In this document: positions 24,088-63,778 of the stretch, piece by piece
How the letters are laid out: each line of letters begins with the position of its first letter
Position numbering within the stretch: the stretch's first letter is position 1
Assembly (NCBI GenBank): GCA_937996685.1
Contig: CALKUP010000001.1
Coordinates: 45,322-109,321, forward strand
Reading direction: 5' to 3'
Origin: an uncultured bacterium
Lineage (GTDB): Bacteria > Patescibacteriota > Patescibacteriia > UBA9570 > XYC2-FULL-38-9
DNA length: 64,000 nucleotides
Made by a program: the position numbers and the translations under genes
The notes under the pieces: generated by a model
What the model saw: only the letters and a program-made list of their open reading frames with translations
Database searches by the model: none
Told to the model about the DNA's origin: nothing

Positions 24088-26996
<2,909 letters not shown>

Positions 26997-27209
26997 ATGG
27001 TCTTGACGTATAGTTGATACTATACCGCGTGCAAGACGCACGCTCTACGTTTCAGTTTGTATAAAAGCAAACAAGAGAAGAAACAACGCAGAAATATTTT
27101 GATCTATTCAGTTAAGTAACGTTTTATCGCAAGAGAGGTGATGCTCTCCTGTGATGAAAGCGGTTAGAGTCACCAGAGTTGTGATGCGAAACAGATTCGC
27201 GTAACAATT

Positions 27210-27314
27210 CTGGTGGTTCTAGCGACACGGAAACACCTGTTCCCATTCCGAACACAGCAGTTAAGCGTGTCAGCGCCGATGATAGCCTTCGGGTGAAAGT
27301 AGGTCACCGCCAGT
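27210..27314 (+). rRNA. rrf: 5S ribosomal RNA
   Basis: tctggtggttctagcgacacgg...gttcccattccgaacacagcagttaagc...gtaggtcaccgccag is typical 5S. Ends are approximate. Confidence 0.8.
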
Positions 27315-27326
27315 TTATCGATCTAA

Positions 27327-48414: not shown

Positions 48415-48792
48415 ATGAAGAAACTCGCACGATTATTATCATCATTTGGTTTCACAGCGATGGGCTTGCTTGCTGCAAATCCCGTTTCTGCGCAATTGAA
48501 GACCAGCTTTTCAGGTTCTGAAGTTCCAGCACTTGGAACTCGAACTCCACAAGCGATCATCGGACAAGTAATCAACGTAGCGCTTGGTTTCTTGGCATTC
48601 GTTGCTGTTATCCTTATCCTATATGGTGGTTTTTTGTGGATGACTGCTGCCGGAAATGAAGATCGCGTTGAACAAGCGAAGAAATTATTAACAGCCGCTA
48701 TTATCGGTTTGGTAATTATTTTAGCTGCTTGGGGAATTTCCCTGTACGCTATTGGTACTCTTGCAACCGCTACTGGAACATCTGTCAAATAA
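48415..48792 (+). CDS. TrbC/VirB2-like pilin-family small membrane protein, paralog 4
   Basis: Strong SD. Signal peptide ...ANPVSA-QLK. Core is FLWMTAAGNEDRVEQAKKLLTAAIIGLVIILAAWGI. Confidence 0.7.
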   Translation: MKKLARLLSSFGFTAMGLLAANPVSAQLKTSFSGSEVPALGTRTPQAIIGQVINVALGFLAFVAVILILYGGFLWMTAAGNEDRVEQAKKLLTAAIIGLVIILAAWGISLYAIGTLATATGTSVK

Positions 48793-48810
48793 AAAACAGA
48801 CCAGTCAAAA

Positions 48811-48840
48811 AGGCGTCCGTTTATCGGGCGTCTTTTTTTT
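48811..48840 (+). terminator. probable terminator after pilin paralog 4
   Basis: Imperfect hairpin ggcgtccg...cgggcgtc followed by T8. Confidence 0.45.
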
Positions 48841-48869
48841 ATTCCGATTGTTTGGTATTCTCTACAAGA

Positions 48870-50936
48870 ATGAAAGCTATACATCGTTTACGATTTTTTT
48901 TGTTACAAGACTTTTTGTCTGTCCCGCGCCTGCTATGGTTCTGGATGATTGGAGTCTGCTGTGTTGTGATTGGAATCTGCGTCGTATCGTATACGCAATT
49001 TCAATATGCAGGCCTTGATCTTGGAATTTACAATCAAGTTCTATGGAATACAGCGCATGGTCGTTTATTTGAGTTTACATTTAATGAATCATCATATCTT
49101 GTTGATCACCGTGAATGGTTGTTGATTTTGTTGACGCCGATCTACTGGGTTGTAAATCAACCGCTTGTGTTGGTGGTAATTCAGTCAGTGATTGTGAACA
49201 GCGTTGTGATTCCGATGTATTTGCTTGCGCGAACAGTCTTTGACGGAATGGTGCCGCATCCAAAAAAAGCTGCGCTATTTGTTGCGGCAGCGGTATTATT
49301 GCATCCAACAATCTTAAATATGCAGCTGTTTGAGTTTCATGTCCTTGCGCTCACAGCACCGCTCGCTGTCTGGTGGTGGTATGGCATTGTGACGCAGCGC
49401 CGCTTTCGTTGGGTCTTTTTTATCATCCTGCTACTCATGCGTGAAGATGTTGCTATTACAACTGCTGGCGTCGGTGTGCTGCTGTATATAACAGAACAAA
49501 AACGTTGGAAGGAAGCGGCGGTGATTGTGATCGCGAGTGTTATGTGGTTTGCAGCGATGGTTTGGGCTGGAGGGTATTTTTCCGTTGAAGATAATCCATT
49601 ATTTTTCTCGTTGTATTCATGGATGGGAACCACGCCACTCAACGTGCTTCAGTACATGGCGCTGCATCCGCTGGCTGTGTTGCGACATGTGTTATCGGCT
49701 GGGAATATATTTTTGTTTTTATTATTTTTAATGAGCACGGCCTTTTTGCCGCTCCTTGCATTTCGTCGTTTGTTTCCGGCACTGCTCGGTTTGAGTGTCT
49801 ATTTTTTCATGGGCAGTATTAAAATTGGCATGGATATTTTTCTGTATCATTACGGAGTATTGATTACAATTTGGACATGTATCGCCGCGCTCTATGGATA
49901 CAGAAGATTATTTGATGATACAAAAAAATGGAAAGTGCCATTTTTTACACAGAAGGACATGCATTATTTTGCGGCGCCAATCGTGATGGTCGTATTGTTT
50001 TCAACCTGGGTATTTTTTGGGCTTCATTGGGCATTGCTTGATATTGTAAAACTGCATTCAGAAGATCGCAGTGGTTTGCGGGCGGTGATGCAAGATATTC
50101 CAGCAGACGCTTCGGTAATGGCGTCTGATCGAGTGTATCCATATCTTTCAAGTCGACAATTTTTGTATTCAACAAAATATATCAATAGCGGGTTAAAGCA
50201 CTATTCATCTCTTGCGTATCAATTTCGCTCCTTTGATTGGCTGGTGATGACTGATGAAGTGGCGCGGATGCAAAACGGTAGTTCAATTCAAACAAAAGCG
50301 AACTCGGTTAAGCGCTTGCGATACCAGTTGCAAAAAAACGCGCTTGTGCCAGTCCGCCTTTTTGAGCAAGGCGTGTTGTATGGACCGGCTGCTGCAGCAC
50401 CTGCTCCGTCAGAGCCTGTGCGGTCTGCCGTTGGTTTTGTGTCGCAGGTTCATGCAAATCAACGGGTGCATCCGACGGCACGCTTGGATGGATATACGTA
50501 TGATGATGCAACGCGTCAATTTTCTCTCCAACTGACACGTATGAACGATGATCAGGCGATAGCGTTTCGGGCTGATCATGAAGATGATCAAGAGCTCTTT
50601 GTTCGGGTGTTGTGGCACACGCGTTATGGTCTGCCAGCATCAACGCAATATCGATTGCTCGGTAGCGCAACAGATCCAATGTATCTCTGGGGGAATGACG
50701 AGTCGCGGGTTATGCAGCTGCCATGGATTTTTCCAGAAGGAGCAACGGATGTTCGGTTAGAATTTGGTAGTTTGTATTTACCGCCGCAGCACCTTGCTGT
50801 CACTCAAACAATGCCGCTTATGCGAAAGCCATTGCCGCTTGAATATACTGACGTTACGCCAATAGTGGCTGTTGATGAGCGTTGTAAAATCACCCCTACT
50901 CAAGAGCTTGGTTCTTGTAGCGTAAACACGAAATAG
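48870..50936 (+). CDS. DUF2079-family polytopic membrane protein, GT-C-like, paralog of the 14469..16381 gene
   Basis: Same motif class (AGLDLGIYNQVLWNTAHGRLFE) and multi-TM architecture as the gene at 14469..16381. Start is at the internal ATG (MKAIHRL). Confidence 0.6.
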   Translation: MKAIHRLRFFLLQDFLSVPRLLWFWMIGVCCVVIGICVVSYTQFQYAGLDLGIYNQVLWNTAHGRLFEFTFNESSYLVDHREWLLILLTPIYWVVNQPLVLVVIQSVIVNSVVIPMYLLARTVFDGMVPHPKKAALFVAAAVLLHPTILNMQLFEFHVLALTAPLAVWWWYGIVTQRRFRWVFFIILLLMREDVAITTAGVGVLLYITEQKRWKEAAVIVIASVMWFAAMVWAGGYFSVEDNPLFFSLYSWMGTTPLNVLQYMALHPLAVLRHVLSAGNIFLFLLFLMSTAFLPLLAFRRLFPALLGLSVYFFMGSIKIGMDIFLYHYGVLITIWTCIAALYGYRRLFDDTKKWKVPFFTQKDMHYFAAPIVMVVLFSTWVFFGLHWALLDIVKLHSEDRSGLRAVMQDIPADASVMASDRVYPYLSSRQFLYSTKYINSGLKHYSSLAYQFRSFDWLVMTDEVARMQNGSSIQTKANSVKRLRYQLQKNALVPVRLFEQGVLYGPAAAAPAPSEPVRSAVGFVSQVHANQRVHPTARLDGYTYDDATRQFSLQLTRMNDDQAIAFRADHEDDQELFVRVLWHTRYGLPASTQYRLLGSATDPMYLWGNDESRVMQLPWIFPEGATDVRLEFGSLYLPPQHLAVTQTMPLMRKPLPLEYTDVTPIVAVDERCKITPTQELGSCSVNTK

Positions 50937-52522
50937 TCGCTGTCTGCAAAAATTTCAATAAATCGCGGGTCAGCTTTGATGAGTCGAAGCATTCCGTTGT
51001 TTGATGTCTCGACAATTACGGCTTTTGCATGAAAGTCATCGCGAATGTGTTCGAAGACGTTGTCTTTTTGTGTGCCAAGCGTGATGTCATGCCAGAGCCA
51101 GTAGCGCGCTGGATCTTGGTGGTAGAGAAATGTTGGATCCAGTCCGACGATGTAGTGGTTTTGCCGATTCCAATAAAACAATTGCGGGAACATATCCCAG
51201 TCACTGTGAAACACAATATCACCAGGTTGTGTGTGCGCGGCAATCGCTTGAGAGGCTGCTTTTGTATCTGAGTAGACAAATCCAGATTGCAGATCAGCGT
51301 GAACATTTGTGATGTTTTGGATGCCGATGATTGCAATCAGTAAGATAGAAAGAATTGCAATTGCTCCATGGTTTGCGTATAGAATGACTGATTTTGGTGT
51401 TTGGATATATCGAGTCATTCGTTGTTCGATGGTTTCTAGGAATATCGATAACGATGCTCTGTGTGTGGATTCGTTGCGAACGGTGTCTCGGAGTAGAAAA
51501 GCACCACTGATAACCGCCCATGGAATCAGGTATTCAATGTATCGCTGAGATTTCAATGTAAATACCAGTAAAATGGAGCTGTACAAGAATAGTCCAATTG
51601 TTTCTCCAGATAGTCGTTTATAGCGCGTGAGTGCAAATATGCTACTGAGTAGCCAGGGGATCAGGACAATACTGTCTCGTAGTAACATGTTCGAAACAGC
51701 AATCGGATACCACTCTCTGCCGACGCCAATAACGTCTTGTGCGTTTAAGATACCGATCACAATCAGTTGTTGCCAGATGAGTGCAAAATGATCAGGGAAT
51801 GACGGATGGATCAGTAGTCCGCTGGCTGTGCCGATGAGAATAATGCCGAATGCTTTGAGGAGTGAGATTGCTTGTGTACGACGTTCCGTTGTTCGATTAA
51901 TAAGCCACGCGCCAGCGCCGCCAAGGGACAAGCATGCAGCAAGGAGTGGGAGGACGATAAATCCGCCGTAACTCCAGACAAAGAAAAAGCTCACAAGCAG
52001 TAAAAAGCGATGCCAACGTGGCTGCAGAAGCAGCATGACGCTGACAATTAAAAAGAGTGCGCTTGTGCTTGGAGCTTTGACGAGCCCCATGCGAAATAAA
52101 AAGCTGCTTGAAAGCAGCAAGGCAAGTATCCAGAGTTCTGAAAATGGCGCTTTGTTTTTTACGAGCAATGCATAGATGCCGACAATAACAAGGCTCGCTA
52201 AAATAATTGTCAGAATTTTTGCACCAAGAAATGGAGGCAAAAGCGTGACAAAGGGAATCAGTAAAACGTGATAGAGAAAATGATGGTCGGTGTAGTGTGT
52301 GCCGAGAGAGGTGTATGGTAGCCAAGAAAATGTGTGCGGAATATTGTGTGTGTCCCGAATTATTTCGGCCATTGCGATATGGTAGAAGGAGTCTGGGTCA
52401 GTAAAGCGTTCGCTATTGAGCGACCAGCTGTACAACGCAACACTGAGGCAAAATAGCAAAAGCCCAATAAGCAGTCGAGGAGCAAGATGTGAGTGGCGTT
52501 GATGCCAGGGAGTCTGCGTCAT
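50900..52522 (-). CDS. GT-C-fold-like polytopic membrane protein (putative glycosyltransferase)
   Basis: About 13 N-terminal TM helices plus a C-terminal soluble domain. The acidic loop motif FTDPDSFYH in the first extracytoplasmic loop is reminiscent of ArnT/PMT-type GT-C enzymes. The assignment is inferential. Confidence 0.45.
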   Translation of the reverse strand: MTQTPWHQRHSHLAPRLLIGLLLFCLSVALYSWSLNSERFTDPDSFYHIAMAEIIRDTHNIPHTFSWLPYTSLGTHYTDHHFLYHVLLIPFVTLLPPFLGAKILTIILASLVIVGIYALLVKNKAPFSELWILALLLSSSFLFRMGLVKAPSTSALFLIVSVMLLLQPRWHRFLLLVSFFFVWSYGGFIVLPLLAACLSLGGAGAWLINRTTERRTQAISLLKAFGIILIGTASGLLIHPSFPDHFALIWQQLIVIGILNAQDVIGVGREWYPIAVSNMLLRDSIVLIPWLLSSIFALTRYKRLSGETIGLFLYSSILLVFTLKSQRYIEYLIPWAVISGAFLLRDTVRNESTHRASLSIFLETIEQRMTRYIQTPKSVILYANHGAIAILSILLIAIIGIQNITNVHADLQSGFVYSDTKAASQAIAAHTQPGDIVFHSDWDMFPQLFYWNRQNHYIVGLDPTFLYHQDPARYWLWHDITLGTQKDNVFEHIRDDFHAKAVIVETSNNGMLRLIKADPRFIEIFADSDYFVFTLQEPSS

Positions 52523-52708: not shown

Positions 52709-53431
52709 ATGTCAGGACATTCCAAATGGGCAACCATCAAACGAAAAAAAGAGGCTCTTGATTCACGTCGTGGAGCTGTTTTTACCAAGCTGAGTAAGAA
52801 TATTTCTATTGCCGCCAAAAACGGCAAAGATCCAGATATGAATCCGACGCTCCGCACAGCAATTGAAAATGCTCGAGCAGCGAACATGCCAAAGGATAAT
52901 ATCGAGAAGGCGATTTTAAAAGGTGCAGGTGAAGTTCCGGGAGCGATTTATGAAGAATTGCGGTATGAGGCGTATGGTCCGGGTGGTGTTGCGATGATTA
53001 TCGAGTGCGTCACCGACAACACAAACCGAACCGTGTCGTTTGTGCGCAGTACGCTGACAAAAAACGGCTGCAGTCTCGGAAGTTCCGGCAGTGTATTATT
53101 TCAATTTGAACAAAAAGGAGTAATTCAAATTCCGGCGAGTAACTTGTCTGGAGTGGATCGCGAAGAATTGGAGCTTGCATGTATTGATGCTGGAGCGGAA
53201 GATATTGATGACAGTGTTGACGGGATGTTTGTGACAACTTCACGTGAAGCGTTTCATGCGGTTCAGCAGTTTTTGGCTGAACAAAACGTGTCGCCAGCAA
53301 ATGCCGCGCTTGAATGGATTGCCGGGCAAACTGTTGCACTCGATAATGCAACGCAAACAAAGTTGGACAATTTGATTGATATTTTAGAAAGCGACGACGA
53401 TGTGGTATCTGTCCACACGAACGCTGCATAA
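52709..53431 (+). CDS. yebC: YebC/PmpR-family transcriptional regulatory protein
   Basis: MSGHSKWATIKRKKEALDSRRGAVFTKLSKNISIAAKNG is the YebC signature. It is in the usual position upstream of ruvC. Confidence 0.85.
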   Translation: MSGHSKWATIKRKKEALDSRRGAVFTKLSKNISIAAKNGKDPDMNPTLRTAIENARAANMPKDNIEKAILKGAGEVPGAIYEELRYEAYGPGGVAMIIECVTDNTNRTVSFVRSTLTKNGCSLGSSGSVLFQFEQKGVIQIPASNLSGVDREELELACIDAGAEDIDDSVDGMFVTTSREAFHAVQQFLAEQNVSPANAALEWIAGQTVALDNATQTKLDNLIDILESDDDVVSVHTNAA

Positions 53432-53440
53432 TTGGTGTAT

Positions 53441-53944
53441 ATGAAAATTCTTGGCATCGACCCCGGCCTTCATCGTGTCGGAATTGCGGTTGCTGATATT
53501 ACCGCTGGTCGCTACCAGCTTATTCAATGTGGTGTGATTACGACGCCATCTGAATTATCGCTTTCTGTGCGGTTAGTGCAGCTCCGTGATGATCTGACTG
53601 CATTTATCGCGCAACATCCGGATATTGCAGTGTGCGGCATTGAAGAATTGTTTTTTTCAAAAAACGTGACAACCGCTCCAATGGTCTATCAAGCGCGTGG
53701 GGTTATTTTGGAGTTGCTGGAACGCGTTGGTGTGCAATCGGTTATTTCGGTGAAGCCCCAGCATGTCAAACAATATGTCACAGGATCAGGCAGTGCTGAT
53801 AAGCGCGAGGTGCAAGAAATGGTGCGACATACGTTTCATTTGGATGCTGTACCGAAGCCGGATGATGCGGCTGATGCGGCGGCGATTGCGATTGCTGCAG
53901 AGGCGATATTTCGAAGCCAAGGGCACCAAAAAAACGCGTCATAG
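53441..53944 (+). CDS. ruvC: crossover junction endodeoxyribonuclease RuvC
   Basis: MKILGIDPGLHRVGIAVADI plus the catalytic acidic residues; 167 aa. Confidence 0.85.
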   Translation: MKILGIDPGLHRVGIAVADITAGRYQLIQCGVITTPSELSLSVRLVQLRDDLTAFIAQHPDIAVCGIEELFFSKNVTTAPMVYQARGVILELLERVGVQSVISVKPQHVKQYVTGSGSADKREVQEMVRHTFHLDAVPKPDDAADAAAIAIAAEAIFRSQGHQKNAS

Positions 53945-53950
53945 ACTCTT

Positions 53951-53979
53951 GATTTTTTGCTCCGTTTGTGGTATATTGA
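53951..53979 (+). promoter_or_regulatory. putative sigma70-like promoter of the inserted 7TM/ATP-grasp module
   Basis: TTGATT, a 17-nt spacer, then TATATT, immediately after the ruvC stop and about 18 nt upstream of the ATG at 53997. Confidence 0.5.
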
Positions 53980-53996
53980 GTAGGAATAATTTTCCT

Positions 53997-55571
53997 ATGA
54001 AACACTTTTTTCTTTTTAGCGTTTTGTGTGCAACGCTGACGCTGTTTGCGCCACACATTACGTTTGCTCAAGATGTCACGGCAGATCAAGCAGCTCCTGA
54101 GCCACTGGTGGTAAACGCAGGAACAGACGCGGCAGTTGTTGCTGGTCGATCTGTTCGTTTGGCGGCAACTGGCTCCACAAAGCCGGTGAATGTCGAAAAC
54201 CCGGAAATCGTGTACACCTGGGATTTTGGCGACGGATCAACCGATTCTGGGTTTGAAGTAAACCATGTTTATAAAGAAAGTGGTCGATATCGTGCCGTTG
54301 TCACAGGCAAGCGAATCGCAAACGGTGCGAGCGAAGAGATGTCTGATAGTGTTGAAGTGATTGTTCAAGACCGTTTGGCGTTATTAATTGTTGATAAAAC
54401 AATTTCAGCTGAACAAATTGCGCAATTGAAAAATTATGGCGCAACACAAGGGACGCTTGTGAGTGTTATTCAATCTGCCGGCGCGCCGCAAGAATCAGCA
54501 ATGGTGCAAGAACTCGCGCAAGAATTGTTGAAAGCGGAAGATGATGTGCGTTTGGCAAATGTTATTATTACATGGACATCTGGCAATACAGGTATTAACA
54601 CGTTGATTGAGTTGTCTCGTATTTTGGCGTTAAACGGAACGCCGTCAGATCAATACAATTTTGAAGACAAGGCGATTGTGAGTATTTCGGACAATCAGCC
54701 AATTTCAACAAGTGCTCGTTTAGCACAAAATGTGTTTCAAGGGTTGAACCCGGGCTTCATTGTCGTTGCTGATCGTGTGGTGATGAATCCGGCGATTAAA
54801 GCGGAATCTCCAACACAATTGGAAGAAGCGTTGCGATATAGTGATGCACAATATCAAATCATCACTCCATACACCGCGCGTGGCATCGGAAAGTTGTCGC
54901 CGGCAAACTTCTTGTCATTCACAATGAATTACATGGTGAATAACGGAGTTCCGGTTAATTCCTTGTATTTGATTCTCATGCTTCCAGTGCTAGCGACGAT
55001 TGTTGCGGCAACTCGCCAATTGGTTGGTATTAAAGCCTTTGGTATTTTTGTCCCAACCGTGCTTGCGTTGTCGTTTCTTGGAACTGGATTGAAATATGGT
55101 CTGACGATTTTTGTGAGTCTTGTGATTTTGGGTTCGATTGCGCGTCTGCTGGCTCGCAAATTGAAAATCGCCTATTTACCACGCATGGCAATTGTAATTT
55201 CTTTGCTTGCGTTTTGTATTTTCACAATGTTTTTTGTTGGCGCGCTGTTTAACAAAACAGGCTTTATCGCAGTGTCAGTGTTCCCAATTTTGATCATGAC
55301 TGTGATTACTGAGCATTTTATTACCGAGCAAATTGAGCAAGGCTGGAAAAGTGCAATGAAGCTCTCGATTGAGACATTGATTTTGGCATTGATTGGTTTC
55401 TCAATTGCTGATTGGACATGGTTCAAAAGTGTTGTCTTGGCATTCCCGGAATTGATCTTGCTCACTTTTGTCATTAATTATGGTATTGGTAAATTTACTG
55501 GTTTGCGTTTGACTGAATATATCCGATTCCGTCACGTCTTTAAACATATCCGCAATGCTGAAAAGTCTTAA
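53997..55571 (+). CDS. secreted PKD-domain protein with a C-terminal 7-TM domain (7TM component of a RimK-like ATP-grasp/retropepsin system)
   Basis: Signal peptide MKHFFLFSVLCATLTLFAPHITFA. PKD-like segment YTWDFGDGSTDSGFEVNHVYKESGRYRAVV. An extracellular region of about 250 aa follows, then seven hydrophobic helices in the last ~250 aa. The stop overlaps the next gene. Confidence 0.65.
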   Translation: MKHFFLFSVLCATLTLFAPHITFAQDVTADQAAPEPLVVNAGTDAAVVAGRSVRLAATGSTKPVNVENPEIVYTWDFGDGSTDSGFEVNHVYKESGRYRAVVTGKRIANGASEEMSDSVEVIVQDRLALLIVDKTISAEQIAQLKNYGATQGTLVSVIQSAGAPQESAMVQELAQELLKAEDDVRLANVIITWTSGNTGINTLIELSRILALNGTPSDQYNFEDKAIVSISDNQPISTSARLAQNVFQGLNPGFIVVADRVVMNPAIKAESPTQLEEALRYSDAQYQIITPYTARGIGKLSPANFLSFTMNYMVNNGVPVNSLYLILMLPVLATIVAATRQLVGIKAFGIFVPTVLALSFLGTGLKYGLTIFVSLVILGSIARLLARKLKIAYLPRMAIVISLLAFCIFTMFFVGALFNKTGFIAVSVFPILIMTVITEHFITEQIEQGWKSAMKLSIETLILALIGFSIADWTWFKSVVLAFPELILLTFVINYGIGKFTGLRLTEYIRFRHVFKHIRNAEKS

Positions 55572-57054
55572 TAAAGTTTTAGGCATTAACGCTCGAAACC
55601 GAGTGTATTTGCGAGCCAATAAAAAACACGCTCGCAATATTGCCGATGATAAGCTTGCAACCAAAAAAATCCTCATTGATAACAGCATTGGAACTGCTGA
55701 TTTGCTGGCGGTGATTCATAATACAAATGATATTCGTGAGTTTGATTGGGAGTCCTTGCCGTCAACATTTGTCATTAAGCCAAACAAAGGTTTTGGCGGG
55801 CAAGGTATTTTGGTGATTTTTAATCGTTTGAAAAACGGGAATTGGATTACAACCAACAAAAAACAACTAACGGTCAATGATCTGCAAGAGCATATTCGTA
55901 ATATTTTAGATGGTAATTTTTCGTTATTGAATACAGCAGATACGGCGATTATTGAGTCTCGTCTTTCAATGAGTCCGTTTTTCAAAGTGTTTTCAACCCA
56001 AGGAATCCCAGATATCCGTGTGGTGGTATACAACGGTGTGCCGGTTATGGCGATGATTCGGGTTCCGACCAAAAAGTCTGAAGGCAAGGCAAATCTCGCG
56101 CAAGGAGGTATCGCGATCGGCATTGATATTGCGACCGGCCGGACAACCTATGCTGTTGTGAAGTCATGGCTCTATGAAAAAGAAATTGAGTTTCACCCAG
56201 ACACAGGAGCACAGTTGCGCGGGAAGCAGATTCCGTTATGGAACGATATTTTGCTGACTGCAGTGCGAGCAGCGCAGGCAACAGGCATGCGATATGCTGG
56301 CGTTGATGTGTCAGTTGATAAAGTAATCGGACCGGTTGTATTAGAATTAAATGCGCGACCAGGACTGGGCATTCAAGTGGCAAACATGTTGCCGCTTCGA
56401 GATCGATTGCAACGCATTCGAGGATTGAAAGTAAAATCCCCAGAAAGTGGCATTGCGCTCGCAAAAGAATTATTTGCCGGGCCATTTGATGCCGAAGTAG
56501 AAAATATTACAGGCCGACAAGTGATTGGATTGCAAGAGCCTGTTTCTGTGTGGGCTGATTCAGCTCAAAAAGTGGAAACGTTTGCAAAGATTGATTCTGG
56601 CGCAAAGACAAGTTCGATTGATGAAGCGCTGGCTCGTCAACTTGGGTTTGGCCCTGAGCTGGATCTATTTGCACAGTCTGCAAAACAGAATTTTGCAACA
56701 AAAGTAGAAGCTCATGTGCATGCAGAGCAATTGAAAAAAACACTCAGTGCTCAATCAGAGAAGATTGCTGACGTGAGTGTTGTCACCTCATCTCATGGAA
56801 TGTCGATCCGAATGCATGTCCGGATTACAGTGGTGCTTTCTGGACGGGAAATGATCATTACCCCAAATGTCTATAATCGAGAAAATCTGACATATCCTAT
56901 TTTAGTGGGTGTGACAGATCTTGGATTTTATTTGCTTGATCCGAGTAAAGCAGCGTCTGCAGAAGTGAAGGCCTTTCGGGCAGAGCGCAAAAAAACCATC
57001 GAGGAAAAAGTGCATCACGAAGTAGATATTGCAGAAATCGACGCAGCAGAGTAA
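55555..57054 (+). CDS. RimK-like ATP-grasp ligase (alpha-L-glutamate-ligase-related) fused to a C-terminal retropepsin-like (clan AA, DSGA) protease domain
   Basis: The N-terminal LGINARNRVYLRANKKHARNIADDKLATKKIL...PNKGFGGQGILVI and ...VVLELNARPGLGIQ follow the ATP-grasp/RimK-related pattern. The C-terminal FAKIDSGAKTSSID carries the D-S/T-G-A aspartyl-protease signature. It overlaps the upstream gene by 17 nt. Confidence 0.65.
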   Translation: MLKSLNKVLGINARNRVYLRANKKHARNIADDKLATKKILIDNSIGTADLLAVIHNTNDIREFDWESLPSTFVIKPNKGFGGQGILVIFNRLKNGNWITTNKKQLTVNDLQEHIRNILDGNFSLLNTADTAIIESRLSMSPFFKVFSTQGIPDIRVVVYNGVPVMAMIRVPTKKSEGKANLAQGGIAIGIDIATGRTTYAVVKSWLYEKEIEFHPDTGAQLRGKQIPLWNDILLTAVRAAQATGMRYAGVDVSVDKVIGPVVLELNARPGLGIQVANMLPLRDRLQRIRGLKVKSPESGIALAKELFAGPFDAEVENITGRQVIGLQEPVSVWADSAQKVETFAKIDSGAKTSSIDEALARQLGFGPELDLFAQSAKQNFATKVEAHVHAEQLKKTLSAQSEKIADVSVVTSSHGMSIRMHVRITVVLSGREMIITPNVYNRENLTYPILVGVTDLGFYLLDPSKAASAEVKAFRAERKKTIEEKVHHEVDIAEIDAAE

Positions 57055-57065
57055 GTTGTATTTAT

Positions 57066-57650
57066 ATGATTGCATTTTTAACGGGAACGATTCATTCCAT
57101 TGATGAATTGAGTATTATTTTATTGGTCAACGGGATCGGATATCGCGTCTATTGTCCGTCAACAACAATCAGTGATATTCACCTTGGTGAAAACATTGAG
57201 TTGTATATCCATCACCATATTCGTGATGATGCGCAAGAGTTATTTGGTGTGCGCGGGCAAGACGAGCATCAATTTTTACAATTAGTATTAAAAGTGTCTG
57301 GCGTTGGTCCAAAAATGGCCTTAACAATGTTGTCGCAATTCACTCCGGCGCAGCTGTATAATGCGGTGATGAGCCAAGATGTCGCGCTATTAACGAGTAT
57401 TTCTGGTATCGGTAAAAAAACAGCAGAGCGGATTGTTTTAGAGTTAAAGGATTCAACCGTGGCAATTTTTTCTGCAGGGACAGCGCCAGCTGCCGCGGTT
57501 GTGCCAAGTGCTGATTCGCTTGTTGTGTCTGCGTTGCAAGGACTTGGGTATCAACAGCAAGAAATTCAAGAAGTGCTTGCGCGGATCGATACAACTCTTG
57601 AACCAGAAGAGCAAATTCGTGCTGCCTTATCAGTATTCGCGCGATCATGA
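57066..57650 (+). CDS. ruvA: Holliday junction DNA helicase subunit RuvA
   Basis: MIAFLTGTIHSIDELSIILLVNGIGYRVYCP, HhH motifs (SGVGPKMAL, SGIGKKTAERI) and a C-terminal domain III; 194 aa. Confidence 0.85.
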   Translation: MIAFLTGTIHSIDELSIILLVNGIGYRVYCPSTTISDIHLGENIELYIHHHIRDDAQELFGVRGQDEHQFLQLVLKVSGVGPKMALTMLSQFTPAQLYNAVMSQDVALLTSISGIGKKTAERIVLELKDSTVAIFSAGTAPAAAVVPSADSLVVSALQGLGYQQQEIQEVLARIDTTLEPEEQIRAALSVFARS

Positions 57651-58720
57651 GTGAATTTCAGATTGAATACGAACATGATTCAGAGGACTTATGGGACAGT
57701 GGTCGTGCTTCGGCATATTTCCCGAGTCCCTTGGAGTCTTGGGATTGGAAGGCTGTGCAAGAAGGTGTTGGGAGAGTTTGTCATACAGTGCGAGTGCTGA
57801 CGAATAGCGGGGAATTGCTTGCGAGTACGCTTCTTGTTGAGATGCGCGGATCATTCGGCTTGTATTACTTGTTATCACCGCGGGGTCCTGTGTTAACGCA
57901 TGCGGCTCGGCTTGATTCAGCGCTGTGTGAGCGCATGATGCAAGCATTGCGAGGCGGTATTGCGGCGCATTTTCCAAAAGCATTATTTTGGCGTACAGAG
58001 CCTGATGCTCCTGTTGTGGTTCCGGTGTCTGGAATTCATTTTCAACCTGCGCCATGGAAAACATTCGCAGCCTTTCGGGTGCATGATGTACAGCCGGCGT
58101 GGACTCGCGTGTTGTCATTGCGTGGCGTGAGCGCAGAACAGCTACTTTCCCAAATGAAGCAGAAAACACGGTACAATATCCGCCTCGCTGAAAAGAAGGG
58201 GGTTGTTGTGCGGCAGGTGTTTCGAGATGCTGTGAGCGATGTGGAATGGAACGCGGTTGTCGATCAATGGATTGCATTGCAAGACGAAACAGCGCAACGA
58301 CATGGGATTCAGCATCATGGCGCGGATTATTATCGCGGGCTTGCTGGGGCGCAGTGGCGTGGTCGTTTTGTGTCGTTTGTTGAAGCGTCATACAACGGAG
58401 AAGTGATCGCAATGGCAGTTCTGTTGTCTGATGCAGGCGCCCAAACAGTGACGTATCTCTTCGGAGCCTCAAGTGGTCAATATATGAACGTGATGGCGCC
58501 CTATGCAGTGCAATGGCATGCAATTCAATATGCCTTGCAAGCTGGTTTCGGACAATATGATTTTTACGGCATTGCGCCACAAGGAGCTGCGGATACACAT
58601 TCGCTCGCAGCAGTGAGTCGCTTTAAAGAAGGATTTGGCGGTGAGGTGTTTGTCTATCCAGGAACCTACGATTTCCCCATTCGGCCATTTTTGTATAGTC
58701 TGTATAGACTAAAACGATAA
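57647..58720 (+). CDS. FemAB/FemX-family peptidoglycan interpeptide-bridge aminoacyltransferase
   Basis: Overall FemX pattern, notably YMNVMAPYAVQWHAIQYALQAGFGQYDFYGI (compare FemX ...YYAPYAVQ...IQWAL...YDLGGI). It overlaps ruvA by 4 nt and is moderately GC-elevated. Confidence 0.7.
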   Translation: MSEFQIEYEHDSEDLWDSGRASAYFPSPLESWDWKAVQEGVGRVCHTVRVLTNSGELLASTLLVEMRGSFGLYYLLSPRGPVLTHAARLDSALCERMMQALRGGIAAHFPKALFWRTEPDAPVVVPVSGIHFQPAPWKTFAAFRVHDVQPAWTRVLSLRGVSAEQLLSQMKQKTRYNIRLAEKKGVVVRQVFRDAVSDVEWNAVVDQWIALQDETAQRHGIQHHGADYYRGLAGAQWRGRFVSFVEASYNGEVIAMAVLLSDAGAQTVTYLFGASSGQYMNVMAPYAVQWHAIQYALQAGFGQYDFYGIAPQGAADTHSLAAVSRFKEGFGGEVFVYPGTYDFPIRPFLYSLYRLKR

Positions 58721-58724
58721 ACGT

Positions 58725-59657
58725 ATGACAAAACGGATTGTAACGATTGGCGGAGGTTCCGGACAACCTGAATTATTACGCGCTTTAAAACAATACCCAT
58801 ATCGACTGTCGGCGATTGTGTCGATGATGGACAACGGGGGATCGTCTGGGATATTGCGCGATGAAGAAGGCGTGCTGCCTCCTGGAGATTTGCGACGCAG
58901 CATCACCGCGCTTGCGGACGAGAGTGTCGCAGCTGACATGAGCACTGCCTGGGAAGAGCGAGACGAGGCAGGTCACGCGGCAGGGAATATTGCGTTGGTT
59001 GAAAAAACGCATGAATTTGGTGATATGCAATTGGCGGCTGACTGGTTTTTACAAGAGGCGCAATCAGAGCACGAAGCAATTTGTTCAACGCTTGAACCAA
59101 CGGATTTGGTGGCTGATTTTTCTGATGGAACACGTGTGTTCGGTGAACATGAAATTGATGTGCCAGAGGCGTCACGTCGTGATCCCAATGCACGTATTGA
59201 ATATTTGAGTTTAGAGCCTGTTGTATCAGCCGCGCCGCGTGCATTCCAGGCAATTAAATCAGCAGACGCGATTGTGTTATCAATGGGTGATGTGTTTACG
59301 AGCGTGATTCCGGTGTTGCTGCTTGAAGGGCTCAACGAGGCAATTGCAGATCGTCAGGCACTCGCGCGTATTCCTGTGATTGCGGTGTGTAATCGAACAA
59401 CAAAATTGGGAGAAACACATGGATTTTCAATGAAGCAATTACTTGATACATTTGCGCTCTATCTTGAGCCAGGAATACTAACTCATGCAATTGTTGATTC
59501 ATATAGTGTACCAGTGCCCGAAACCGCAGAAGCGTTTTCTGTAGAAGATATGGACACACCAATCTCAATATCTCGGGTTGATTTAAGTGATGAAAATAAT
59601 GCGGCAGTTGTCAGTGGATCGAAGGCCGCAAAAGCGATTCATGCAATTGTTCAATAA
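58725..59657 (+). CDS. YvcK/CofD-like (UPF0052) gluconeogenesis-factor family protein
   Basis: IVTIGGGSGQPELLRAL...SMMDNGGSSGILRDE is the UPF0052 hallmark. Confidence 0.75.
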   Translation: MTKRIVTIGGGSGQPELLRALKQYPYRLSAIVSMMDNGGSSGILRDEEGVLPPGDLRRSITALADESVAADMSTAWEERDEAGHAAGNIALVEKTHEFGDMQLAADWFLQEAQSEHEAICSTLEPTDLVADFSDGTRVFGEHEIDVPEASRRDPNARIEYLSLEPVVSAAPRAFQAIKSADAIVLSMGDVFTSVIPVLLLEGLNEAIADRQALARIPVIAVCNRTTKLGETHGFSMKQLLDTFALYLEPGILTHAIVDSYSVPVPETAEAFSVEDMDTPISISRVDLSDENNAAVVSGSKAAKAIHAIVQ

Positions 59658-61754: not shown

Positions 61755-61985
61755 ATGCCAAAAACACCAGCCAAAAAAGGAGTCAAAAAAACCAGCGATG
61801 ATTTTCATATTGGAAAAGAAATGGAGGCACTGGAGCAAGCGATTGACGCGATTGAAAGTGAAGACGGTGATATTGATGCGTCTATTGAGCAGCTGACAAT
61901 TGCAATGGAAAAAGCCAAGCTCATTCGTGCGCATTTGAAACAAGCGCAATTACGAGTTGATGAATTAACAAGTAGTGATCTATGA
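61755..61985 (+). CDS. xseB: exodeoxyribonuclease VII small subunit
   Basis: FHIGKEMEALEQAIDAIESEDGDIDASIEQLTIAMEKAKLIRAHLKQAQLRVDEL is a typical XseB coiled coil; 76 aa. Confidence 0.85.
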   Translation: MPKTPAKKGVKKTSDDFHIGKEMEALEQAIDAIESEDGDIDASIEQLTIAMEKAKLIRAHLKQAQLRVDELTSSDL

Positions 61986-62938
61986 AAAAAATAGTAACAG
62001 TATTGTTTTTATACAGTGGAGATGATTGGGAGAAATCGGCCCCTTTTTTACAAACACCTTTTCAAGACAATGGATATCGAAATTTTTATACACGCGGCCT
62101 CAATGAATTCGGCATACTTTGTGTGCGAGCGTCTATTGATTGGTATCAAAACGGTGTCTGGCAAAAATATTGGACATTTGATGGTGAGCAATGGGTCAAG
62201 CATGACGAGTCTATTCGCCCAGATATTGTTGTTGATAAATCAGGTTTGTATTTCCCTTCGTATCAGAAGCTGCAGGACATGCAGCAACATGTGGTTTTGT
62301 TAAATGCATGGGAATTAAAAATGATCGCTTCTGATAAATTGATTACATCCGTTGTCTTTCAGGACTTGATGCCACAATCAAAATTAGTGTATACGACAGA
62401 TCAGCTGATTCAAGCAATCACGGGTATGGAATCGGCAGATATTGTAATCAAGCCGCAGCATGGCTTTGGTGGAAATGGGATTGTTATCTTGCCGGCAGAA
62501 GAAGCAAAGCAAGTAGAAATCCATGAGCCGTGTATTGTACAACCATTTATTGATACATCCGGTGGTATTCATGGCATTGTCCAAGGGTACCATGATTTAC
62601 GCGTTGTTGTGATGGGTGATAATCCGGCATATTCTTTTGTTCGTACTCCCGCTCCAGGTTCAAAGTTGTGTAATTTAGCACAAGGTGGCAGCGCGCTCTA
62701 TGTTCCGCTTGCTGATGTCCCATCCGCGGTCATGGATCTTATTACCCGTGTGCGACGTCAATTACAAACGTTTCCGCACTCGATTTATTCCGTTGATTTT
62801 TTGTTTGACGAACATCAAAAGCCGTGGATTGTTGAAATGAATGCCACGACCGGCCTTGATTATCGTGATGAGTCACCTGAGTTGAAGCAATTTGGTTACG
62901 ATGCGCATTTTCGTTATTTCCTTTCATTGGTAAAATAG
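61982..62938 (+). CDS. ATP-grasp domain protein (RimK/glutathione-synthetase-like ligase, unassigned)
   Basis: IVIKPQHGFGGNGIVIL, HDLRVVVMGD, NLAQGGSALYVP and PWIVEMNATTGLD follow the ATP-grasp pattern. The start overlaps the xseB stop by 4 nt. Confidence 0.6.
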   Translation: MKKIVTVLFLYSGDDWEKSAPFLQTPFQDNGYRNFYTRGLNEFGILCVRASIDWYQNGVWQKYWTFDGEQWVKHDESIRPDIVVDKSGLYFPSYQKLQDMQQHVVLLNAWELKMIASDKLITSVVFQDLMPQSKLVYTTDQLIQAITGMESADIVIKPQHGFGGNGIVILPAEEAKQVEIHEPCIVQPFIDTSGGIHGIVQGYHDLRVVVMGDNPAYSFVRTPAPGSKLCNLAQGGSALYVPLADVPSAVMDLITRVRRQLQTFPHSIYSVDFLFDEHQKPWIVEMNATTGLDYRDESPELKQFGYDAHFRYFLSLVK

Positions 62939-62959: not shown

Positions 62960-63778
62960 ATGATAAAAATTTTCTTTTCAATTATCGGAGTATGTATTGC
63001 CTTTTTGATTGGAGTGTTGTTTTTTTTATACATTACCGCGCCATCTCATTACACGGTATTAGTGATTGGTTCTGATCAACGCGGTGACGAACGGGCGCGA
63101 TCTGATGTCATGTTTGTGGTCAGTATTCCAAAATCCGGAGACAAGCAGCCGGTATTTTTGAGTGTGCCGCGTGACACGAAAGTGGAAGACAAAGAACACG
63201 GTTTGCAAAAAATGACGCATTTTTATGCGATGGGAGACCGAACGGATCCAAACAAAAAACTCGGCAACCGAACGCTCACACAAGAAAAAGTAGAAGATCT
63301 CCTTGATATTAAGGTCGACGGAACACTTGAAGTGACATTTGATTCTTTCCAAGAAATTATTGATAGCGTTGATGGTGTGTCATTAGAAGGAAAAAACACA
63401 ACTGGCTCACAAGCATTGGCGCGGATTCGTGATCGCTTCACAGAAGGTCGCTCTGATTTTGATCGTCAAGCAAATGAGCGTGAAGTCTTTCGGGGGATTT
63501 TAACAAAAATCAAAAGTCCAACAAAAGCACGTGCACTGTATGATTATTTTCAGACGTCGGATAAAGCCAATCTTGAAATCAACAAAGTTAAGCTGGCTCG
63601 ATTCGCTTTTGGAGCTGGAATTGCTCGGGGCGGTGACGTGAGTATTGGTGAAATGAAAGAATTAGAAGTTCCAGGAAAGGGTGAAAAAATCTACACACCA
63701 TCCTTTGGAAAGGCGTTATATTATTGGGTTGTTGACGAACCAGAGCTCAAAAAAATCGTGGACGAAAACTTAAAATAG
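62960..63778 (+). CDS. LytR-CpsA-Psr (LCP) family cell-wall glycopolymer transferase
   Basis: N-terminal TM anchor, then LVIGSDQRGDERARSDVMFVVSIP...LSVPRDTKVE, which is the LCP hallmark. Confidence 0.8.
   Translation: MIKIFFSIIGVCIAFLIGVLFFLYITAPSHYTVLVIGSDQRGDERARSDVMFVVSIPKSGDKQPVFLSVPRDTKVEDKEHGLQKMTHFYAMGDRTDPNKKLGNRTLTQEKVEDLLDIKVDGTLEVTFDSFQEIIDSVDGVSLEGKNTTGSQALARIRDRFTEGRSDFDRQANEREVFRGILTKIKSPTKARALYDYFQTSDKANLEINKVKLARFAFGAGIARGGDVSIGEMKELEVPGKGEKIYTPSFGKALYYWVVDEPELKKIVDENLK

Follow-up and report, generated by a model that had tools for sequence, protein, structure and literature searches.

The window analysed here, a stretch of 64,000 nt from the genome of an uncultured bacterium, holds two co-directional genes between ruvC and ruvA. 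Gene 1 encodes a membrane protein with a seven-helix (7TM) domain, and gene 2, which follows it with an overlap of 17 nt, encodes a fusion of an ATP-grasp ligase and a retropepsin-like peptidase (Table 1). An earlier note, made from the sequence alone, had described the pair as a module inserted between the two ruv genes and compacted in this genome. When the genes were mapped again, the open reading frames (ORFs) and flanks were as described there; the maximal ORF of gene 1 opens inside ruvC, and its sensible start is the ATG at 53997 (MKHFFLF...), giving 524 aa. A survey of related genomes showed, however, that a 7TM gene with a fusion gene after ruvC is conserved across many lineages of the candidate phyla radiation (CPR). 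From the identities of the domains, the conservation of their catalytic residues, the strict pairing of the two genes and their phylogenetic spread, we favour with moderate confidence the reading that the pair is a vertically inherited, CPR-wide two-gene system of the Rlo/Rim type, i.e., a membrane-docked, envelope-linked maker and trimmer of poly-alpha-glutamate (poly-Glu) or a similar acidic peptide.

Fusion protein encoded by gene 2

AlphaFold2 (AF2) models of the two proteins, which rest on alignments of 75 and 69 homologs, were both confident, and that of the gene 2 product had a mean predicted local distance difference test score (pLDDT) of 87.4. The N-terminal half of this protein matched ATPgrasp_ST at 1e-68 (PF14397 is also cited for its RloC-type ATP-grasp domain) and the alpha-L-glutamate ligase-like family TIGR02291 at 1.9e-81, its residues 7-291 aligning with positions 11-293 of the 317 in the profile. 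Against rimK_fam (TIGR00768) it scored 45.4 bits, the cutoff being 143.4. Judged by sequence, TIGR02291 is clearly the closest family of the ligase. Its ATP-grasp fold, together with the Lys in the KP..G..G loop and the D...E-x-N motif for Mg binding, places it in the ATP-grasp superfamily, and K75, E134, R136, D251, E264 and N266 were invariant among 75 fusion homologs. Ddl enzymes were good structural matches.

The ligase is joined to a PF05618 peptidase domain (3.5e-7, residues 338-466, above the Pfam cutoff) in one protein of 499 aa, as the earlier note had held. Among the same 75 homologs D347, G349, A350, R419 and R442 were invariant, and K345 was conserved in at least 90%. When the full-length protein was compared with the Protein Data Bank by phmmer, the RloA structures were not retrieved, but a profile of the peptidase domain alone matched 9G58 and 9G59 at 2e-10 and 1e-8. 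Both are RloA crystal structures of Lormand et al. (PMC12239564), and no other solved structures were better matches to the domain. In the alignment the K-I-D-S-G-A motif falls on AKxDTGAK of these structures, and K345, D347, R419 and R442 stand at the spacing of RloA K46, D48, R114 and R137. These four RloA residues are predicted to coordinate poly-Glu; alanine at coordinating residues lowered cleavage in vitro, and RloA substituted at D48, R114 or R137 no longer complemented the triple rloA mutant (PMC12239564). The domain therefore has both marks of the RloA/RimB-like type, namely a retropepsin fold with D-[ST]-G-A and the basic residues of the poly-Glu channel. No signal peptide or hydrophobic segment was detected in the gene 2 product, so that it lacks the secretion signal and the periplasmic location of RloA. 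Since it has no signal peptide and the peptidase lies internally, C-terminal to a cytoplasmic ligase, the peptidase is placed in the cytoplasm. Both domains look intact, and the residue pattern suggests a peptidase of the poly-Glu-binding type.

Membrane protein encoded by gene 1

Homologs of gene 1 with the same architecture were found in Patescibacteria at 31-78% identity, and the AF2 model had a mean pLDDT of 89.3. The membrane domain belongs to PF14402 (7TM_transglut; 5.2e-31, 108.5 bits with a cutoff of 25, profile positions 54-247 of 248). The NF052267 model of RloB matched the 7TM part only (1.5e-23) and stayed far below its cutoff of 900 bits, so that the protein is not a full-length RloB. 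Seven hydrophobic segments within residues 321-498 coincide with the AF2 helices, and the count of seven given in the earlier note was thus correct. In the homolog alignment P330, P353, R383, P395, P430, E439, Q445 and P484-E485 were invariant in this region. The Pro and Glu residues that are conserved within the membrane (P330, P353, P395, P430, E439 and P484-E485) would suit an active role better than that of a passive anchor.

The predicted signal peptide ends at A24; this residue and Q25 after it are nearly invariant among the homologs. The PKD domain that follows was recognised by its Pfam match and its beta-sandwich fold. Between this domain and the first membrane helix the earlier note had seen an extracellular region of about 250 aa; the region is there, but measures about 195 aa. 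Its domain of about 190 aa has alternating beta strands and alpha helices and is not transglutaminase-like. When 1.84 billion representatives were searched exhaustively with HMMER, 52 matches to it were obtained, and the full-length ones mostly had the same layout of PKD, middle domain and 7TM; it is therefore regarded as an orphan domain specific to this family. Neither PF14400 (Transglut_i_TM) nor PF14401 (RLAN) was matched by the window proteins at E values up to 0.1.

With the ectodomain outside and seven helices, the topology is predicted to be N-terminus outside and C-terminus inside, which puts the basic tail in the cytoplasm. The tail carries 7 K/R, and in its helix G502, L503, R504, E507, R510 and F511 were invariant. 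We infer that this helix is a candidate docking site for the gene 2 product. The earlier note had suggested that the 7TM protein itself is modified by the enzyme. The conserved basic C-terminal helix does not support this, and the tails of 14 gene 1 homologs were likewise basic and contained no acidic acceptor tail. An encoded poly-Glu substrate or an acidic acceptor tail was rejected for the window. The domain calls of the note were all verified (PKD, 7TM_transglut, an ATP-grasp domain related to RimK, and a retropepsin-like domain of clan AA that carries D-S-G-A), and the peptide strings quoted in it are all present in the proteins. Overall, its observation is confirmed with small corrections, and its interpretation is supported in part.

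Distribution and synteny

One genome per species was scanned, and at least 592 genomes contained a relative of the fusion protein. The best 80 loci were examined by mapping the window proteins onto all of their ORFs. These 80 loci span Kerfeld-, Falkow-, Moran-, Paceibacteria-, Dojka-, Levy- and Shapirobacteria and appear to be CPR; some automatic labels are doubtful. L014, L017, L020, L054, L058 and others are titled 'uncultured Bdellovibrionales', 'Gammaproteobacteria' or 'Candidatus Fimivivens' despite a typical CPR locus, and as their gene order matches Moranbacteria-type loci, they have probably been mislabelled automatically. Among the homologs of gene 2, the best 120 were all of fusion length (452-688 aa), and most had both precomputed Pfam matches. 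Those with names came almost all from Candidatus Kerfeldbacteria, Moranbacteria, Falkowbacteria or the 'Patescibacteria group', in agreement with the CPR-like character that had been ascribed to this genome.

In 74 of 75 testable loci the fusion gene was immediately preceded by a 7TM gene. Here and in L001, L002 and L009 the reading frames of the pair share 17-20 nt, and the two genes are probably translationally coupled. The usual partner in CPR genomes is a bare 7TM protein of about 215 aa. The earlier note had seen a PKD head in place of a transglutaminase head; a transglutaminase head is indeed missing, but the head with PKD and middle domain occurred in only 9/74 loci and is a rare decoration. 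The peptidase domain was detectable in 77 of the 80 loci. Three loci (L012, L033 and L065) have an extra stand-alone retropepsin-like gene of about 160-180 aa with DTGA kept directly 3' of the fusion gene, and in L065 the fused copy is without D[ST]GA. Such genes suggest heterodimers of fused and free protease domains. The possibility of two tandem protease domains in these loci was rejected, because the second copy is a separate downstream gene.

Genomes of the Kerfeld-, Falkow-, Moran- and Paceibacteria types share the order yebC-ruvC-7TM-fusion. ruvC adjoined the 7TM gene in 42/70 testable loci, directly upstream on the same strand in 40 and divergently in two. In the two divergent, Levybacteria-type loci (L080, 5989-7012; L083, 433-1511) ruvA-ruvC lies on the opposite strand, and the linkage with ruvC persists there though co-transcription is impossible. 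About 40% of the loci, of the Dojkabacteria type and others, have the pair without ruvC. ruvA was found directly 3' of the fusion gene in one of 68 species-level loci and in five of nine loci from the closest homologs, and as the immediate downstream neighbour it is confined to Kerfeldbacteria-like genomes. In other genomes the genes that come after it encode PBP1A, a glycosyltransferase, a Mur ligase and additional ATP-grasp ligases. All this makes the pair an old module of CPR bacteria that is inherited vertically and usually placed after ruvC, and not a local insertion between ruvC and ruvA. Among the grounds that would speak against its own reading, the earlier note had named a lineage-conserved place in the ruv operon with a known function; the conserved place was found, and the function is known only in part.

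A second, stand-alone ATP-grasp ligase is encoded downstream of the pair in the window and matched ATPgrasp_ST (1e-9), GSH-S_ATP (4e-8) and RimK (1e-7). Homologs of it lie directly 3' of the fusion gene in at least 11/68 other CPR loci. It is possibly a displaced third member of the module; because of its position elsewhere, the ancestral module may have had three genes, which may later have been split here by ruvA-femAB-cofD-HAD-xseAB. In some lineages a small gene of the bAvd/23S_rRNA_IVP family stands between yebC and ruvC (L005, 4439-4801; L008, 1415-1780).

The idea of a recent, horizontally acquired cassette that brought its own promoter and broke up a canonical ruvC-ruvA operon, which follows the framing of the earlier note as an insertion, could draw on a consensus-like promoter in the 52-nt spacer between ruvC and gene 1 and on the GC content, which dips to 0.38 at 55250-56000. 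The promoter site does exist, but hexamer pairs of the same type numbered 8 in the 5.6-kb region, compared with 8.1 expected from shuffling, and the spacer could not be aligned with relatives (the genes overlap in L009 and are 19 nt apart in L002). A promoter of its own is for these reasons unproven and was not retained. The GC dip stays within the range of the flanks, and no direct or inverted repeats bound the gene pair; together with the deeply conserved synteny this led us to reject a mobile insertion. The recent cassette is effectively refuted by the synteny survey, yebC-ruvC-7TM-fusion being kept in the four types of genome named above, and is given almost no weight. The same linkage could instead reflect a shared function with yebC and ruvC in DNA recombination or repair, such as tethering a component of repair or competence to the membrane or tagging it with a peptide. 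The frequency of ruvC beside the pair, the two divergent cases included, speaks for such a role. However, many loci lack ruvC, neither protein has a nucleic-acid-related domain, and experiments on homologs all indicate envelope, osmotic stress or poly-Glu, so that a repair function is considered very unlikely.

Surroundings of the gene pair

Envelope genes of the window include FemAB (57647-58720), a CofD-family protein (58725-59657) and LCP (62960-63778). Around the module many envelope genes are interleaved with repair genes (ruvC, ruvA and xseA). Just 5' of yebC two large multi-pass membrane proteins are encoded convergently with a 37-nt overlap, at 48729-50936 on the plus strand and 50900-52522 on the minus strand; one is a DUF2079 protein, and the other (540 aa) is without a Pfam match. 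23S and 5S rRNA genes are located at 24090-27315, and 16S was absent from the window in an Rfam gathering scan; the rRNA genes of this genome are probably unlinked. rpsF does not lie within the window.

Table 1. Coordinates of the gene pair, its domains and flanks in the window, and features of related loci
Feature	Position	Strand	Remarks
yebC	52709-53431		full-length Pfam match
ruvC (upstream flank)	53432..53944	+	full-length PF02075 match, 1.1e-34
Sigma70-like TTGATT-N17-TATATT with TG extended -10	53949..53977	+	chance-level, not conserved
Gene 1, membrane protein, 524 aa	53997..55571	+	signal peptide, PKD, orphan alpha/beta domain, 7TM, basic cytoplasmic tail
Predicted signal peptide, residues 1-24 (...ITFA|QD)	53997..54068	+	hydrophobic N-terminal segment
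PKD domain, about residues 36-124	54102..54368	+	WDFGDG motif
Orphan extracytoplasmic alpha/beta domain, residues 125-316	54369..54944	+	flavodoxin-like three-layer fold
Seven-helix membrane domain, RloB/7TM_transglut type, residues 321-498	54957..55490	+	PF14402
Conserved basic C-terminal helix (GLRLxEYxRFR...)	55491..55568	+	predicted cytoplasmic
Gene 2, cytoplasmic fusion protein, 499 aa	55555..57054	+	RloC-type ATP-grasp ligase and retropepsin-like peptidase
ATP-grasp ligase domain, residues 7-291	55573..56427	+	
Retropepsin-like (RloA/RimB-like) peptidase domain, about residues 321-466	56515..56952	+	
Catalytic motif K345-I-D347-S-G-A350	56587..56604	+	
ruvA (downstream flank)	57066..57650	+	full-length by Pfam (RuvA_N, HHH_5 and RuvA_C)
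Second stand-alone ATP-grasp ligase, 318 aa, RimK/GSH-S/YheCD-like	61982..62938	+	5 kb downstream
Second-ligase homologs after fusion gene	L005 7426-8385; L006 2937-3896; L011 9392-10264; others		
Extra stand-alone peptidase genes	L012 4320-4802; L033 7119-7664; L065 2831-3331		
Dojkabacteria-type fusion ORFs	L051, L055, L059, L061, L063, L067, L071, L073, L075, L077, L081, L082		

Proposed function

In the system of the Rlo/Rim type favoured here, the fusion protein would dock on the 7TM protein from the cytoplasmic side, and its ligase domain would build alpha-linked chains of glutamate or a similar acidic residue, either free or on an acceptor. The peptidase domains would pair into the obligatory retropepsin dimer and trim or release these chains, perhaps also stimulating the ligase as RimB does with RimK. 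The 7TM protein would then pass the product to the surface, or tune the balance of ligase and protease by sensing through its ectodomain, and the physiological output would be envelope or osmotic homeostasis. As ligase and protease are covalently joined and cytoplasmic, it can be argued that they act on the same product, like RimK and RimB. Because the protease is cytoplasmic, control of the product must precede any export, and in this respect the system is closer to Rim than to Rlo. The strict 7TM pairing makes the membrane partner appear essential, and the frequent envelope genes among the neighbours (FemAB, the CofD-family protein and LCP in the window; Mur ligase, PBP1A and ATP-grasp ligases in other lineages) are in line with an envelope-linked role.

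Several points weigh against this proposal. The TIGR02291 score of 273.5 bits is below the trusted cutoff of 314.2, so that the ligase is not an equivalog of that family, and the NCBIfam models of RloA and RloB scored far below their own cutoffs. To our knowledge, the glutamate specificity of RloC-type ligases has not been demonstrated biochemically, Pseudomonas included. In the Dojkabacteria-type fusion proteins the motif is mostly F-[MI]-D-T-G-[VI] and not K-I-D-[ST]-G-A; the domain keeps D-T-G and loses the Lys and the second Arg (the R442 equivalent), so that poly-Glu specificity does not extend to the whole family. From these substitutions the Dojkabacteria-type peptidase probably has a different substrate specificity or is an inactive domain; in L076 the catalytic Asp of the fused peptidase is lost. 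As the protease is periplasmic in Pseudomonas and cytoplasmic here, the modes of action cannot match exactly. No poly-Glu or Asp/Glu tract of at least 6 residues is encoded in the window, and a poly-Glu/envelope model leaves the linkage with ruvC unexplained.

Of the other readings, a cell-wall role is the hardest to set aside. The ATP-grasp domain would add an amino acid to a peptidoglycan or secondary-polymer precursor, the peptidase would edit it, and the 7TM protein would handle a lipid-linked intermediate. FemAB, CofD and LCP near the pair fit this reading, as do the structural matches to Ddl and the cell-shape and beta-lactam phenotypes of rlo mutants. So do the genes that lie directly downstream in L005, L006 and L008, namely Mur_ligase_M, PBP1A, a glycosyltransferase and additional ATP-grasp genes resembling Ddl or RimK. 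However, the neighbourhood is weak evidence, because CPR genomes pack unrelated genes co-directionally and ruvC, ruvA and xseAB stand in the same array. The closest sequence families of the ligase are alpha-L-glutamate ligases and not Ddl or Mur, and the peptidase retains the poly-Glu-binding basic residues of RloA. A cell-wall peptide ligase is therefore judged unlikely. A ribosomal role of the RimK/RimB type, with Glu added to and removed from S6 and the 7TM protein a mere neighbour or anchor, is quite improbable: the ligase is of the RloC type (273 bits for TIGR02291 versus 45 bits for TIGR00768, cutoff 143), the domain order is opposite to that of RimBK, and the near-obligatory, overlapping 7TM gene (74/75 loci) is foreign to rim loci.

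Significance

As a tentative extension to which we attach low confidence, the CPR pair could be a minimal, possibly ancestral Rlo system, i.e., a self-contained, membrane-docked synthase and trimmer of poly-alpha-glutamate (acidic peptide), whose 7TM protein would deliver or gate the product at the surface. If this were true, RloB-type 7TM proteins would stand at the core of the function and connect peptide ligation in the cytoplasm with the envelope, proteobacteria would have gained their secreted protease and transglutaminase head only later, and ultra-small, metabolically reduced bacteria would possess a widespread device for envelope or osmotic homeostasis. Since the CPR variant is without a transglutaminase head, that head is dispensable for the core function. 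The Rlo genes of Pseudomonas are important for antibiotic tolerance, biofilm and cell shape, and the CPR variant is a natural experiment on the biochemical roles of RloB and RloC. With two genes, reconstitution of the system in vitro is conceivable. A plausible role can now be assigned to a gene pair of at least several hundred species of Patescibacteria.

Comparison with known systems

The link of the pair to a system of 7TM, ATP-grasp and aspartyl-peptidase proteins, drawn in the earlier note, is real. Such a system, with 7TM, inactive-transglutaminase, RimK-like ATP-grasp and aspartyl-peptidase proteins (Pfam PF14400, PF14401 and PF14402), was reportedly predicted in 2009 by Iyer, Abhiman, Burroughs and Aravind. 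The earlier note had invoked the same concept of a gene neighbourhood, and gene 1 scores above the PF14402 threshold, but the window proteins match neither PF14400 nor PF14401. In the literature search no paper was found that ties Rim or Rlo proteins to Patescibacteria, and none that names 7TM_transglut.

The description of the system as functionally uncharacterised no longer holds, since genetic and biochemical work on rloABC and RimB/RimK appeared in 2025 (PMC12239564, PMC11957791). In Pseudomonas aeruginosa rloABC encode a secreted retropepsin (RloA), a 7TM protein with an inactive transglutaminase (RloB) and a cytoplasmic ATP-grasp protein (RloC) (Lormand et al., mBio 2025, PMC12239564). 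RloA cuts runs of at least 8 glutamates. Loss of the three RloA paralogs was lethal in low-salt medium and disturbed cell shape, biofilm and beta-lactam tolerance; deletion of rloB or rloC fully rescued the hypo-osmotic growth defect of the triple rloA mutant and partly its other defects (PMC12239564), which puts RloA, RloB and RloC in one process. The CPR pair has the same three domain families (PF14402 for the 7TM protein, TIGR02291/PF14397 for the ligase and PF05618 for the peptidase), its genes are also adjacent and co-directional, and the K-x-D-[ST]-G-A motif is retained in the fusion along with the two Arg residues. In contrast to the three genes of Pseudomonas, the CPR module has two, with the protease on the C-terminus of the ligase. 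RloA is secreted and periplasmic, whereas the CPR protease has no signal peptide and is cytoplasmic, and the CPR 7TM protein has no inactive transglutaminase but PKD and alpha/beta domains here and no head in most CPR. The hosts also differ, a proteobacterium on the one hand and a monoderm-like CPR bacterium on the other. Since the equivalog tests for RloA, RloB and RloC failed, the pair is named Rlo-like and not Rlo.

RimB, a retropepsin of the cytoplasm, takes Glu residues off polyglutamylated S6. On binding to RimK it increases the ATPase activity of the ligase fourfold, and poly-alpha-Glu is not synthesised without it (Little et al., JBC 2025, PMC11957791). A natural RimB-RimK hybrid, DP2392 of D. 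psychrophila, has an N-terminal protease and is proteolytically active (PMC11957791). The Rim system thus resembles the CPR pair in its cytoplasmic ATP-grasp glutamate ligase and retropepsin-like poly-Glu endopeptidase, and in the existence of an active single-chain hybrid. RimBK, however, joins an N-terminal protease to a true RimK, while the CPR fusion has a RloC-type ligase followed by the protease; with this reversed order and a TIGR00768 score below the cutoff, gene 2 is not a RimBK. Rim loci are without a 7TM partner, and RimBK has been reported mainly in Flavobacteriales and Rhodobacterales, whereas the ligase-protease fusion described here was found in CPR. The pair is therefore neither unique to this genome nor categorically new, but a so far undescribed, fused CPR variant of the Rlo/Rim systems of Pseudomonas, in which the ligase-then-protease order, the cytoplasmic protease and the absent transglutaminase head are the new points.

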